From a virus (taxonomy: Duplodnaviria > Heunggongvirae > Uroviricota > Caudoviricetes), in IMG/VR virus record IMGVR_UViG_2568526230_000010: DNA of 44,797 nucleotides; one strand, given 5' to 3'. The position numbers and the translations under genes were made by a program. Under the pieces are notes generated by a model. That model did no database searches and was not told the DNA's origin. It saw only the letters and a list, made by a program, of their open reading frames with translations. Below, piece by piece: positions 532-41,697 of the stretch (position 1 is the first letter of the stretch; each line of letters begins with the position of its first letter).

Positions 532-1071
532 ATGAAGAAAGTTTTTCTTTGCGCCATCTTAGCCTCCTTAAGCTATCCGGCTATCGCCTCATCATTGCAG
601 GATCAACTCTCGGCTGTCGCAGAAGCGGAACAGCAAGGTAAAAATGAAGAGCAAAGGCAGCATGACGAATGGGTCGCGGAGCGCAACAGGGAAATCCAGC
701 AAGAGAAGCAACGTCGCGCAAACGCCCAGGCCGCGGCTAATAAAAGAGCGGCAACGGCAGCAGCGAATAAGAAAGCTCGTCAGGATAAACTGGACGCCGA
801 AGCCACTGCGGACAAAAAACGCGATCAAAGTTATGAAGATGAGCTACGTAGCTTAGAGATTCAGAAACAAAAACTGGCGCTGGCGAAAGAAGAAGCCCGC
901 GTTAAGCGCGAAAACGAATTTATCGATCAGGAACTGAAGCACAAAGCTGCGCAAACCGATGTGGTGCAATCTGAAGCTGACGCAAACAGAAATATGACTG
1001 AAGGCGGTCGCGATCTGATGAAAAGCGTGGGTAAAGCAGAAGAGAATAAATCAGATAGCTGGTTTAACTAA
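532..1071 (+). CDS. yfgI: Host-flank secreted K/E/Q/A-rich coiled-coil protein
   Basis: RBS AGGAGG 6 nt upstream; cleavable signal peptide (…AIASS); 179 aa, low-complexity charged helical sequence; followed by a strong terminator. Symbol inferred from size and neighbourhood only. Confidence 0.55.
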   Translation: MKKVFLCAILASLSYPAIASSLQDQLSAVAEAEQQGKNEEQRQHDEWVAERNREIQQEKQRRANAQAAANKRAATAAANKKARQDKLDAEATADKKRDQSYEDELRSLEIQKQKLALAKEEARVKRENEFIDQELKHKAAQTDVVQSEADANRNMTEGGRDLMKSVGKAEENKSDSWFN

Positions 1072-1110
1072 ACGATGTTAGTAACTTCAAACCTATAATT
1101 CTTTAGGATA

Positions 1111-1142
1111 AAAAACCCTCTGTAGTAACAGAGGGTTTTGTT
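1111..1142. terminator. Bidirectional rho-independent terminator
   Basis: 10-bp perfect stem AACCCTCTGT/ACAGAGGGTT with loop AGTA, A-tract 5' and T-tract 3', directly after the stop of the 532..1071 gene. Confidence 0.7.
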
Positions 1143-1161
1143 CATTCATAGTGCAGGGTCA

Positions 1162-1260
1162 AATCATTCCCACTCAATTATTTACGGACACCATAACTAA
1201 TTGAGTGATAACATTTTTCCAAAGATGAATTTTTCTCGTACCGTTTTATATACCGTCACC
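1162..1260. other. Candidate att core and P' arm (start of attL/attP identity)
   Basis: First bases shared by the left junction and the inter-copy junction; contains 10-bp inverted repeat CACTCAATTA (1171-1180) / TAATTGAGTG (1198-1207) and the 11-mer ATACCGTCACC (1250-1260) that recurs in the opposite arm at 40954-40964. Confidence 0.35.
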
Positions 1261-1288
1261 GGAAATCAGTACCATGAAAAATGCCATG

Positions 1289-1771
1289 CTATCTGGTCAG
1301 TGTGTCGTACTGTTTTTCGCAGACTCTTCCGGCTTCGGCTGCCCGGTCAGCATACTCTGCCAGTTGTCTGTTTCTCTCGAGAGATTTGCTGAGCACGTCG
1401 GCAAGCAAAACTCCGGTGTCTGCGGCTGACGTCCCAGCGCCGACAATGGCGTTATACTGCCTGAGCTGCTCACGGATGGCAAAGAGTTGTTGCTGCAACC
1501 TGCCAGCGCGAGCGGCAGCATCAAGAGCATCGCTGCGCGCCTGCTCGATCCTCTGCTGCGCTTCACGTTCATTGGTCGCTTTCTCCTGTTCGTAGTGCTG
1601 ACGAACTTTTTCTTCTTCGGCTTTGCGGTCTTCTTTCGCCTGCGCATACCCGGCGTCGTACTGACGACTGCCGTGTGCATTCCAGGCTACAACTCCTGAT
1701 ATGACCAGAACAGCAAGCATCGCCATGATAACCAACTGTTTCCAGTATGCTTTTACGAATGCCCAGATCAT
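1289..1771 (-). CDS. Rz-like inner-membrane spanin
   Basis: 160 aa; N-terminal TM helix then Q/E/R/A-rich coiled coil; last gene of the lysis cassette, overlaps the endolysin stop by 4 nt. Confidence 0.75.
1297..1530 (-). CDS. Rz1-like outer-membrane lipoprotein spanin, embedded in Rz in the +1 frame
   Basis: Internal start gives [12 protein letters not shown]… with lipobox LAGC and a Pro/Ser-rich 77-aa product lying entirely inside the Rz ORF, as in lambda Rz/Rz1. Confidence 0.6.
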   Translation of the reverse strand: MLLMLPLALAGCSNNSLPSVSSSGSITPLSALGRQPQTPEFCLPTCSANLSRETDNWQSMLTGQPKPEESAKNSTTH

Positions 1772-25474: not shown

Positions 25475-25551
25475 GTGGCATTAGCTCAGTTGGACAGAGC
25501 AACCGCCTTCTAAGCGGTTGGTCGCAGGTTCGAATCCTGCATGCCACGCCA
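25475..25551 (+). tRNA. tRNA-Arg (anticodon UCU), phage-encoded
   Basis: Cloverleaf folded by hand: acceptor GTGGCAT/ATGCCAC, D-stem GCTC/GAGC, anticodon stem ACCGC/GCGGT with loop CTTCTAA, T-arm GCAGG-TTCGAAT-CCTGC, discriminator G and encoded CCA. Acceptor stem differs from host argU as recalled. Confidence 0.85.
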
Positions 25552-39646: not shown

Positions 39647-40897
39647 TTATTCCCCCGCCATCCACTTCTCAAACTTCGACGGGGAGAACGGAATCAGATC
39701 CGTATGCTCCCCGTCAATCCATGAATCAATCATATCGGCCCACTGCTGCAACATGTAGGCGCGCTGTCTGGCGTATTCCGCTTTGTTATATACGGCGCGC
39801 ACACCTTTCTGCTCATGTGCCAGAGCCTTTTCAATCCAGTCTGAAGGATAACCAGCCTCATGCAACAACGTACTGGCTGTACGGCGCATATCATGTACAG
39901 TGAAGTCCTGAATATGCTCACCATCTTCATTTATTATTTTCACCGTTCTGTCGATCAGAGAGTTCAGCGCGGCATTAGATAATGGCTTCCGGAAATTGTA
40001 ACGACCAGGAACCAGATATTCACTTCCACCAGCGCACATCTGCAACCCGACCAATATATCCTGTGCCTGTTTAGGCAGGTAAATAACGTGCGCCCGGCTT
40101 CCCTTCATGCGGTCTGGAGGAATTGTCCATGTCCATTTTTTAAAATCTATTTCATCCCACGTTGCATTGGTGAATTCGCCCTTACGAACCATAGTGATAA
40201 GCACCAGTTTTAAAGCCATTTTCATAGTGCCCATAGCACCAATGGCATCCAGCGTGCGGAAGAACAGGCCAATTTCTTCTGGTGTCAGTGTTCGCTCTCG
40301 TGGTTTAAATATGGCGATAGACGAAGGTTTAATGTCAGCCGCAGGATTAAACAAACCATGACCACGGTCATTGGCGTGACGGTATACGCTACTGATGATC
40401 TCCCTGGCCTGCACTGCTGTTGCCCGGCCACCGCGTTCGACAATCCGGTCACACAAATCACGAACCATCGATGTGGTAATTTCAGCCATCATTTTATTGC
40501 CAAGAACCGGAAGTATGTCACGGTCGATCACCGCCTGTTTCATTGCGCGGGTACTGTCAGCCAGGATGACGTGTTTCATATAACTGTCGGTATGTACCGC
40601 AAACGTCTCGGCACCACGAATCTTTTTGATACCGTCACGTTTAGCCGCAGCCGGTGACTGGCCTGCTTTAAGCAGCTTCTTTGCAGCAATCAGTTCTTCT
40701 CGCGCTTCTGCCAGGCTGATACCGTCACGCCCATACTGCCCGATTACCAGTGTTTCGCGGCGACCGTTGATACGGTAGTCATAGCGAAACGAGACCGTGC
40801 CTGACGTAAGCACAGCTACATACAGCCCGTCACGATCGGAGACCTTGTACAGTTTGTCCTGCGGCTTGAGGTTTTTTAATTTTGTATCGGTAAGCAC
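39647..40897 (-). CDS. int: Tyrosine integrase (P4-type with N-terminal arm-binding domain)
   Basis: 416 aa; N-terminal DUF4102-like region (LYKVSDRDGLYVAVLTSGTVSFRYDYR) and C-terminal catalytic region with HDMRRT and a conserved Tyr; last gene before the inter-copy junction. Confidence 0.85.
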   Translation of the reverse strand: MLTDTKLKNLKPQDKLYKVSDRDGLYVAVLTSGTVSFRYDYRINGRRETLVIGQYGRDGISLAEAREELIAAKKLLKAGQSPAAAKRDGIKKIRGAETFAVHTDSYMKHVILADSTRAMKQAVIDRDILPVLGNKMMAEITTSMVRDLCDRIVERGGRATAVQAREIISSVYRHANDRGHGLFNPAADIKPSSIAIFKPRERTLTPEEIGLFFRTLDAIGAMGTMKMALKLVLITMVRKGEFTNATWDEIDFKKWTWTIPPDRMKGSRAHVIYLPKQAQDILVGLQMCAGGSEYLVPGRYNFRKPLSNAALNSLIDRTVKIINEDGEHIQDFTVHDMRRTASTLLHEAGYPSDWIEKALAHEQKGVRAVYNKAEYARQRAYMLQQWADMIDSWIDGEHTDLIPFSPSKFEKWMAGE

Positions 40898-41087
40898 AAT
40901 TCACCCGTATAGAAACCATTTTCATGACGGTATGAGAGTATACCTTTAAGGTAATACCGTCACCTGTACCGACGAAAAATATGGTGTAGAGTGAATAGAA
41001 ATGAATACATAAAAACAAAAACCCTCTGTAAAAACAGAGGGTTAAATTAGTATCTGAATAGGAATGAGTTGCTATGAGTTAGCTGTT
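40898..41087. other. attP-type P arm between the integrase and the second prophage copy
   Basis: Unique 190-bp segment carrying a terminator hairpin, an ATACCT-N3-AGGTAA site (40940-40954) and the ATACCGTCACC repeat (40954-40964); identity with the left junction resumes at 41088. Confidence 0.5.
41011..41043 (-). terminator. Terminator hairpin nearly identical to the host-flank terminator
   Basis: Stem AACCCTCTGT/ACAGAGGGTT identical to 1114-1137; loop AAAA instead of AGTA; U-tract only on the minus strand. Confidence 0.55.
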
Positions 41088-41214
41088 AATCATTCCCACT
41101 CAATTATTTACGGACACCATAACTAATTGAGTGATAACATTTTTCCAAAGATGAATTTTTCTCGTACCGTTTTATATACCGTCACCGGAAATCAGTACCA
41201 TGAAAAATGCCATG

Positions 41215-41697
41215 CTATCTGGTCAGTGTGTCGTACTGTTTTTCGCAGACTCTTCCGGCTTCGGCTGCCCGGTCAGCATACTCTGCCAGTTGTCTGTTTC
41301 TCTCGAGAGATTTGCTGAGCACGTCGGCAAGCAAAACTCCGGTGTCTGCGGCTGACGTCCCAGCGCCGACAATGGCGTTATACTGCCTGAGCTGCTCACG
41401 GATGGCAAAGAGTTGTTGCTGCAACCTGCCAGCGCGAGCGGCAGCATCAAGAGCATCGCTGCGCGCCTGCTCGATCCTCTGCTGCGCTTCACGTTCATTG
41501 GTCGCTTTCTCCTGTTCGTAGTGCTGACGAACTTTTTCTTCTTCGGCTTTGCGGTCTTCTTTCGCCTGCGCATACCCGGCGTCGTACTGACGACTGCCGT
41601 GTGCATTCCAGGCTACAACTCCTGATATGACCAGAACAGCAAGCATCGCCATGATAACCAACTGTTTCCAGTATGCTTTTACGAATGCCCAGATCAT
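41215..41697 (-). CDS. Rz-like spanin (copy 2)
   Basis: Protein identical to the 1289..1771 product. Confidence 0.75.
41223..41456 (-). CDS. Embedded Rz1-like lipoprotein spanin (copy 2)
   Basis: Identical to the 1297..1530 ORF. Confidence 0.55.
   Translation of the reverse strand: MLLMLPLALAGCSNNSLPSVSSSGSITPLSALGRQPQTPEFCLPTCSANLSRETDNWQSMLTGQPKPEESAKNSTTH

Follow-up and report, generated by a model that had tools for sequence, protein, structure and literature searches.

The attachment site of a tandem phiV10/epsilon15-type prophage at the 3′ end of guaA in E. coli, most likely a complex site of the lambda type

Where at the end of a prophage does its integrase exchange strands, and which of the repeats clustered there does it bind? 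These questions are raised by a stretch of DNA of 44,797 nucleotides (the window, by which we mean the whole of that stretch) in which E. coli chromosomal sequence gives way to prophage at position 1162. An earlier note on this DNA had proposed that an attachment site begins at 1162, that a perfect 10 bp inverted repeat just to the right forms the core-type integrase sites, and that an 11-mer shared by the two arms represents arm-type sites. We find the locus to be the attL of a prophage of the phiV10/epsilon15 type that sits at the guaA 3′ end, and the evidence presented here indicates that it most likely works as a complex attachment site like that of lambda.

A tandem prophage of the phiV10/epsilon15 type

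The window starts in E. coli chromosomal DNA containing yfgH (1–516) and yfgI (532–1071), as recognized by Pfam matches and by the RefSeq annotation of matching genomes, and is prophage from 1162 on. The genes near both ends are all on the minus strand, and those at the left prophage end encode an Rz-like spanin, an endolysin and a holin. Comparison of the left junction with a second, internal junction shows identity that begins at 1162 (corresponding to 41088), with the bases further to the left differing, and the 3,710 bp from 41088 to the end of the window are free of mismatches, giving a repeat unit of 39,926 bp. Because the sequence of 1162 onward restarts at 41088 without a mismatch, the window, past its chromosomal part, takes in attL and a whole prophage, then an attP-type junction beyond which a second, identical copy begins. 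This is thus a tandem lysogen, and it is for this reason that the site is seen again at 41088, there in an attP-type junction.

The phage is a Uetakevirus similar to phiV10 and epsilon15, with a prophage of 39,926 bp located at the guaA 3′ end. Identity across the int-att-Rz region is 97% to phiV10, ZX5 and related E. coli phages and 87–88% to the Salmonella phages SPN1S and epsilon15, and the integrase protein shares 98.6–99.3% identity with the phiV10 and ZX5 integrases and 87% with that of epsilon15. The att region differs from those of the phiV10 group in strain-level sequence only (96–97% identity to the phiV10 and ZX5 attP regions), apart from the tandem arrangement that places attL and an attP-type junction within a single window. 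Integration and excision have been shown for ZX5; for the present prophage the support is occupancy, with a junction of this kind found in about 360 of 5,426 complete E. coli genomes. No tRNA was found at the att site, and the target is therefore a protein gene, unlike that of many P4-type integrases.

The common core

Publicly available genomes delimit the core precisely in silico. The yfgI side is matched in 5,417 of the 5,426 complete E. coli genomes, and in those free of the prophage the match to window positions 700–1500 ends at query position 479, corresponding to window position 1178. The empty attB of E. coli LS4 reads GGGTCA, AATCATTCCCACTCAAT, AGTTGCTGG, with its final part corresponding to the guaA end on the minus strand (ATT GAG TGG GAA TGA). 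AZ162 is a single lysogen with 100% identity at attL, and its attR contains, in order, the int-proximal arm, the same 17 bp, and guaA, with the match to the internal junction of the window stopping at 41104. The empty LS4 site and the AZ162 attR together define a common core at 1162–1178, and show that the segment exchanged is this 17 bp core, AATCATTCCCACTCAAT, which is identical to the internal junction from 1162 and to the empty attB until 1178. A second copy lies at 41088–41104, in the attP-type junction between the tandem prophages, 190 bp from the int start codon (41088 − 40897 − 1). The core carries the last four guaA codons and the stop codon on the minus strand, and insertion therefore leaves guaA intact.

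Both copies are the exact reverse complement of a published core. In ZX5, the attP/attB core is attgagtgggaatgatt, located at the guaA 3′ end and 190 bp from the 5′ end of int, with attB, attL and attR all verified by PCR and Sanger sequencing, and the same core is cited as proven for phiV10 and epsilon15 (PMC9782041). The present locus shares with phiV10, ZX5 and epsilon15 the identical 17 bp sequence, the attB at the guaA stop codon, and an orthologous integrase at the same 190 bp spacing. An att site of the phiV10/epsilon15 type at the guaA 3′ end is thus already known from the literature. The proposal of an att site with core identity starting at 1162 is borne out, and the attB and single-lysogen attR sequences with which the earlier note had suggested the core be delimited, here taken from LS4 and AZ162, both give 1162–1178. 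The prophage boundaries in the window can accordingly be set exactly, at 1162–1178 and 41088–41104.

The overlap and candidate core-type half-sites

We aligned eight phage attPs, namely those of the window, phiV10, epsilon15, SPN1S, PAT1, BUCT554, Tyrion and BUCT711 (the last three from Enterobacter and Klebsiella phages), whose integrases are 79–99% identical to that of the window. All 33 placements of a 6, 7 or 8 bp spacer inside the core were scored in these attPs for dyad symmetry of the flanking 10 bp. A single placement, GTTAATCATT – CCCACTC – AATTATTTAC, with a 7 bp spacer, gives symmetry at 7–9 of 10 positions in all eight phages; every other placement gives six or fewer. CCCACTC is thus the candidate 7 bp overlap, at 1169–1175 with a second copy at 41095–41101. 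The candidate half-site C, GTTAATCATT, lies on the plus strand of the attP junction at 41085–41094, and its dyad partner C′, AATTATTTAC, at 41102–41111, also on the plus strand, with its attL copy at 1176–1185; in attL the bacterial half-site TCAAATCATT (1159–1168) takes the place of C. C agrees with the reverse complement of C′ at eight of ten positions here, and at nine of ten in epsilon15 and Tyrion.

The pattern of conservation is in keeping with this placement. A block at 1163–1185 is invariant in all eight phage attPs and continues for 7 bp outside the common core, which takes it precisely to the end of the candidate C′, as would be expected from the position of this proposed right half-site. 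The weak point of the placement is the guaA-side half-site of attB, AATAGTTGCT, at which five of ten positions match the proposed consensus.

More distant relatives of the integrase were sought for further comparison. The phage collection contains no integrase with between 33% and 79% identity, and the relatives that a single-protein search recovered from viral contigs were all 99–100% identical and of no use for footprinting. When species-representative genomes were scanned with the N-terminal 139 residues as the query, 80 relatives with 53–96% identity were recovered, and these inform on the int-side junction; conservation of the lysis-side arm and of the inverted repeat discussed below refers to the eight phages. 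About 75 of the 80 relatives, from other species, are located 204–321 bp downstream of GAGTGGGA(A/G)T, which is essentially the only sequence common to almost all of their junctions. These are homologous integrases next to the guaA 3′ end with GAGTGGGA, and they form a guaA-targeting family with that of the window. The family includes the integrase of GIsul2 on plasmid pAB3, which we picked by its int-alpA-repAC-trb-ars-resG-ISVsa3-sul2 context and which is 54% identical to the window's integrase over 95% of its length. GIsul2 recombines at the guaA 3′ end with the core GAGTGGGA, and its secondary sites are reduced to GGGA or TGGG (PMC9376610). GAGTGGGA is the reverse complement of window positions 1168–1175, and contains GAGTGGG, the reverse complement of CCCACTC. 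On the basis of the single conserved dyad, the GIsul2 core, and the sequence common to the relatives' junctions, we infer that strand exchange takes place across CCCACTC (1169–1175), flanked by imperfect inverted core-type half-sites.

Probable arm-type sites in both arms

The second type of repeat is the 11-mer ATACCGTCACC, present at 1250–1260 in the P′ arm and at 40954–40964 in the P arm, with a copy of the first at 41176–41186; its sequence and the two arm positions are just as first reported. With up to one mismatch allowed there are seven matches in the window, compared to 0.48 expected, and none of 100 shuffles reached seven. Three further copies lie at 40629–40639 and 40719–40729 on the plus strand and at 40375–40385 on the minus strand, all of them inside int. 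The earlier note had also described a GTACC motif following each 11-mer, and this is present in both places, but at different distances, 1 nt in one (40966–40970) and 8 nt in the other (1269–1273). The more regular feature is a TACCG half-copy, at 1239 and 40967, with a distance of 12 bp to the full copy in each case.

On the lysis side, the arm sites consist of a half-copy, GTACCGTTTT, at 1238–1247 and the full copy of ATACCGTCACC at 1250–1260, both on the plus strand, with a second copy of the pair at 41164–41186. GTACC at 1269–1273 (plus strand) is conserved as GTRCC, the G, T, C and C being invariant in the eight phages, including those with a different downstream gene, and it may be a weak third arm copy. 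The int-proximal arm sites span 40925–40971 and comprise an inverted 9-mer, TGACGGTAT, at 40925–40933, ATACCGTCACC at 40954–40964, and GTACCG at 40966–40971. Both groups are sharply conserved among the eight phages. The int-side block GGTAATACCGTCA with TACCG is invariant and neighboring stretches vary freely; likewise, the lysis-side 21 bp block TACCGTTTTATATACCGTCAC (1239–1259) is invariant and the 25 bp to its left vary freely.

The integrase gene (39647–40897, minus strand) codes for a 416-residue tyrosine integrase with Pfam matches to Arm-DNA-bind_3, Phage_int_M and Phage_integrase, the first of these covering residues 2–87 (E = 3.9e-20). It thus has a separate N-terminal arm-binding domain, and a repeated, conserved motif different from the core sequence is present on both arms, two features of a complex attP of the lambda type. 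The GenBank record of epsilon15 (AY150271.2) contains four 10 bp protein-binding features labeled "integrase", all of them ATACCGTCAC, at positions homologous to 40629, 40719, 40954 and 41176/1250 of the window, and copies of ATACCGTCAC occupy the same positions in phiV10, ZX5 and epsilon15. The arm-site part of the finding is therefore already annotated.

The motif also extends to distant relatives. TACCGT or ACGGTA occurs two to six times, in both orientations, in the guaA-int spacer of the examined relatives with a RYDYRINGRRET-type or closely similar N-terminal domain (roughly 55–96% identity, the lower limit lying at about 55–63%), including those in Proteus, Rahnella, Tolumonas, Chromobacterium and Cupriavidus. 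In the more distant GIsul2-like clade hardly any member has the full GACGGTAT, and as GIsul2 itself lacks it, its arm sites must differ. The persistence of a short motif in a spacer otherwise too diverged to align gives good grounds for regarding it as a site of protein binding that fits this arm-binding domain. The proposed role of the 11-mer as an arm-type site is upheld by the domain match, by the epsilon15 annotation, and by conservation both in the eight phages and in their distant relatives, making it very probable that the integrase does use the repeated 11-mer as an arm site; binding of the repeated (A)TACCGTCAC motif by the N-terminal Arm-DNA-bind_3 domain, as predicted from these comparisons, is strongly supported.

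The inverted repeat and a candidate IHF site

The inverted repeat to the right of the core is exactly as the earlier note described it: CACTCAATTA (1171–1180) and TAATTGAGTG (1198–1207) form a perfect 10 bp repeat with 17 bp between the arms. The 10-mer CACTCAATTA, at 1171–1180 on the plus strand and 1198–1207 on the minus strand, is found four times in the window, twice in each copy, where 0.10 would be expected. The arms are longer than had been noted, with 17 nt on each side (1171–1187 and 1191–1207), 15 of 17 positions complementary and a 3 nt center, and the structure ties for the longest inverted repeat in the window. The 10 bp repeat thus represents the outer ends of a 37 bp imperfect palindrome centered at 1189 (1171–1207; second copy at 41097–41133). 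Among the relatives, pairing ranges from 10 to 15 of 17 positions, and the changes break pairing instead of compensating.

The right arm of the palindrome coincides with a sequence resembling the IHF consensus. The element ACTCAATTAGTTA, on the minus strand at 1194–1206 between the core and the lysis-side arm sites, departs from the consensus WATCAANNNNTTR by one mismatch. Read on the minus strand the arm is A-n-TCAA-TTnn-TTA, which is WATCAANNNNTTR with the second position unmatched, and it is at this position that it always departs. In the right arms of the eight phages, positions 1192, 1194–1196, 1200–1204 and 1206 are invariant and 1197, 1198 and 1205 vary, and the invariant positions 1194–1196, 1200–1204 and 1206 coincide with those of the IHF consensus. 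A conserved T-tract (an A-tract on the minus strand) is located at 1214–1218, 7 nt upstream of the element on the minus strand, and this arrangement of an A-tract and an IHF-like element resembles the lambda H′ site. Both palindrome arms are annotated as IHF sites in the epsilon15 record. Matches to the IHF consensus with up to one mismatch are not enriched over the whole window (40 against 42 expected), so the assignment depends on position and on the pattern of conservation, not on statistics; the int-side arm has no match at this threshold. We consider the chances that the right arm is a working IHF site to be about even. The left arm is invariant because it is the right end of the overlap together with C′, and the best explanation for the 10 bp repeat is that the right end of the core and C′ (CACTCAATTATTTAC) resemble the IHF-like element in mirror image.

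Several other explanations for these repeats must be weighed. The reading in the earlier note, that CACTCAATTA and TAATTGAGTG are two core-type integrase sites with strand exchange between them, takes account of a perfect repeat that is very unlikely to arise by chance, that adjoins the core, and whose left arm overlaps it. The junctions, however, contradict exchange there: the whole spacer (1181–1197) lies beyond the right end of the core at 1178, the center at 1189 is 11 bp past that end, and there can be no crossover between the arms because from 1179 rightward attL is phage sequence and attB is guaA sequence. Tyrosine recombinases moreover need an overlap of 6–8 bp, and here the arms are 17 bp apart, or 3 bp apart if the palindrome is taken as a whole. 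The right arm is phage-only DNA and only partly conserved, retaining 7–9 of 10 positions in relatives with changes that break complementarity, and the homologous GIsul2 system recombines at GAGTGGGA. A core-type role for the pair is accordingly not sustained and has next to no probability, and the crossover should not be placed by reference to the 10 bp inverted repeat. A second proposal, that the palindrome forms a hairpin, as RNA or as cruciform DNA, in the 3′ untranslated end of the late lysis transcript (minus strand) ahead of a terminator at 41043–41020, where it might act as a stability or processing element, appears very unlikely. The minus-strand RNA from 41215 to 41010 does fold well (−62.6 kcal/mol, z = −6.1), with the palindrome forming one of its hairpins, and RNase III sites are annotated in this intergenic region of the epsilon15 record; those annotations lie elsewhere, however, and not on the palindrome, the paired fraction is no better than in shuffled sequences (176 of 500), and the region gave only chance matches below threshold to Rfam, with no family reaching it. 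Counting of the 17 pairs in the eight phage attPs reveals no covariation, as nine never vary, seven only lose pairing, and one has a double change, and the hairpin was rejected as the main explanation of the palindrome.

The palindrome might alternatively bind a dimeric phage protein and not IHF, such as an excision directionality factor, a regulator, or a second pair of integrase core domains competing with C and C′. Its dyad symmetry of 15 of 17 positions is the strongest in the window and exceeds what two IHF consensus elements would give, since symmetric positions outside that consensus, the outer C-G and inner G-C pairs (pairs 219–255 and 234–240), are also mostly conserved, and the mirror image of C′, ATAACTAATT (1193–1202), matches the half-site consensus at eight of ten positions with a 7 bp gap. 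The symmetry nonetheless falls to 10–12 of 17 in epsilon15, SPN1S, BUCT554 and BUCT711, and the variable right-arm positions 1197, 1198 and 1205 include two that the half-site model needs conserved, and are all N or mismatch positions of the IHF consensus. We therefore think a dimeric protein an unlikely ligand, albeit less so than the other two proposals, and favor the mirror-image resemblance between C′ and an IHF-like element.

Motif copies in int, its possible promoter and a terminator

Two of the arm-motif copies inside int, at 40629–40639 and 40719–40729 on the plus strand, have the sequence ATACCGTCACG, and both are at positions annotated as integrase-binding in epsilon15. On the minus strand they correspond to codons R87–I90 and R57–I60, respectively, and each encodes R-D-G-I. 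In the eight phages, five of the seven amino-acid-invariant codons within these copies are also invariant in DNA, compared to 22% of other such codons (p = 0.007); among the other invariant codons none of eight for Gly and none of five for Ile are invariant in DNA. In the distant relatives, D-G-I at codons 58–60 or 88–90 is always GACGGTAT in DNA (20 of 20 occurrences), and at a control D-G-L at codons 23–25, GGG, GGC and GGT are used freely. This synonymous-site invariance shows that the in-gene motif copies are under selection as DNA, and the constraint is a new observation here.

The in-gene copies (40629, 40719 and perhaps 40375), whose synonymous positions are under selection across genera, may be functional integrase-binding sites, and the palindrome, which overlaps C′, may be the target of a dimeric factor or of a second integrase pair, whose competition with core binding would govern directionality. 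We propose this combination only tentatively, as a doubtful but possible arrangement suggested by the sequence. If functional, the in-gene copies could enlarge the recombination complex so that it reaches into int, or serve in autoregulation as a roadblock. We found no experimental description in the literature consulted of functional in-gene copies or of a palindrome-bound factor for this integrase family.

A possible −10 box of the int promoter, TATACT, lies between the int-proximal arm sites at 40942–40937 on the minus strand and is conserved, appearing as TATAAT in epsilon15. A simple scan of 40700–41400 found no sigma-70 promoter upstream of int, so the proposal depends on this conserved sequence, which was read by eye. 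With the int-side arm sites bracketing the probable promoter, the integrase probably represses its own gene.

A Rho-independent terminator at 41020–41043 (minus strand) within the int-proximal arm is conserved in the eight phages. It would end transcripts of the late operon, or in a single lysogen those of guaA, before they reach int. This terminator is almost a duplicate of the one that the host has between yfgI and guaA at 1110–1140 (AAAAACCCTCTGTA..AACAGAGGGT), differing at 2 of 26 bp, and once the prophage is inserted guaA consequently has a copy of its own terminator behind it again.

Comparison with known systems and a proposed mechanism

The attP of lambda has the organization P-H-C-O-C′-H′-P′, with a 7 bp overlap, inverted core-type sites, repeats on both arms bound by a separate N-terminal domain, and an IHF site between the core and one arm. 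The candidate sites recognized from sequence in the present attP follow the same logic, and the total size, about 270 bp, is similar. It differs in that the arm-binding domain is of the P4-type Arm-DNA-bind_3 family and the motifs are unrelated, and in that int here points away from att, whereas in lambda it points towards it. KplE1 (CPS-53) IntS and the P4-type modules are closer in this latter respect, with int transcribed away from att and its promoter region overlapping the arm-type sites, an overlap that is predicted here; in KplE1 this layout was shown to give negative autoregulation (PMC2951348). The target here, however, is the protein-coding guaA and not a tRNA gene. GIsul2 shares the homologous integrase, the guaA 3′ end as its target and the core GAGTGGGA, but is a genomic island and not a phage, with a guaA-int spacer of about 320 bp as opposed to 204 bp. 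The closest likeness is to the phiV10 group, for which the arm-motif copies and the IHF-like elements are both annotated in the epsilon15 record.

These comparisons suggest the following mechanism. Four integrase protomers would assemble on C, C′ and the two attB half-sites around the 7 bp overlap, the central and catalytic domains binding GTTAATCATT in attP (or TCAAATCATT in attB and attL) and AATTATTTAC. The N-terminal domains would bridge to the copies of TACCGTCAC, about 65–90 bp away on the lysis side and about 130–175 bp away on the int side. An IHF-type bend at 1194–1206, for which we see roughly equal chances for and against, would bring the lysis-side arm sites back to the core, as at lambda H′. 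Integrase bound to the int-side arm copies flanking the −10 box would repress int, as in KplE1 IntS.

The site has little discovery value, since its core and target gene, and even its candidate integrase and IHF sites, had previously been published or entered in the GenBank record of epsilon15, and its practical value is in annotation. The overlap placement, the family-wide arm motif and the constrained in-gene copies are only modestly new material. They constitute a comparative result in three parts: a CCCACTC overlap shared with GIsul2, a TACCGT arm motif found family-wide, and copies within int that are synonymously constrained. These may possibly be of help in the study of guaA-targeting islands such as GIsul2, which spread sul2 resistance.

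Arm motif copies within the integrase gene

The arm motif, a repeated candidate integrase-binding sequence found on both att arms, is also present within the coding sequence of the tyrosine integrase gene (int), at 40629-40639, 40719-40729 and 40375-40385, where its copies lie at R-D-G-I codons. At the first two of these positions the D-G-I residues are encoded with GAC GGT codons in all 20 cases among distant relatives, unlike the control D-G-L in these relatives, for which the codons vary. Across the window and seven related phages, the same two copies show constraint at synonymous sites (p = 0.007).

Organization of the int-proximal arm

Several further elements are located between int and the attP-type junction. 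Two arm-motif copies on the int side form a 9 bp inverted repeat, TGACGGTAT...ATACCGTCA (40925-40962), which is annotated as an RNase III site in the epsilon15 record (AY150271.2). Between these copies, on the minus strand, is a conserved TATACT (TATAAT in epsilon15) that could be the -10 box of the int promoter. A direct repeat, 5′-TGAATAG(A/G)AATGA, is present in two copies (40992-41004 and 41055-41067; 63 bp from start to start) that flank the terminator of this arm, and both are retained in the attPs of all eight phages; the repeat may be a site for an accessory protein (excision factor).

The minus-strand RNA from 41010-41215, corresponding to the untranslated 3′ end of the late lysis mRNA, has a fold of -62.6 kcal/mol with four helices, the terminator among them, and folds unusually well relative to shuffled sequences (z = -6.1). 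A phage-encoded tRNA-Arg gene (anticodon TCT) is located mid-prophage, at 25475-25551 on the plus strand.

A tandem prophage

Two prophage copies are arranged in tandem from 1162 to 44797 in the window, with the junction at 41088 and a repeat unit of 39,926 bp; the window holds 3,710 bp of the second copy, all of it identical to the first copy. A chromosomal attP-type junction of this phage type is present in only five of 5,426 complete E. coli genomes, and none of these five junctions is identical to that in the window.

Integration at the guaA 3′ end

Species-representative genomes hold a large integrase family whose members sit downstream of guaA, 204-321 bp from its stop codon, and have N-terminal domains 53-96% identical to that of the window integrase. 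Its hosts are Gamma-, Beta- and Alphaproteobacteria and its members include the type carried by the genomic island GIsul2, a distribution indicating that the guaA 3′ end is an insertion hot spot widely used by one integrase lineage. Within the int-proximal arm, the phage carries a terminator (41017-41045) that nearly duplicates the host bidirectional yfgI/guaA terminator (1110-1140); the two (AAAAACCCTCTGTA..AACAGAGGGT) differ at 2 of 26 bp and are otherwise identical. Integration thus places a copy of guaA's own terminator after guaA once more, and the resemblance hints that the phage arm originated from host DNA.
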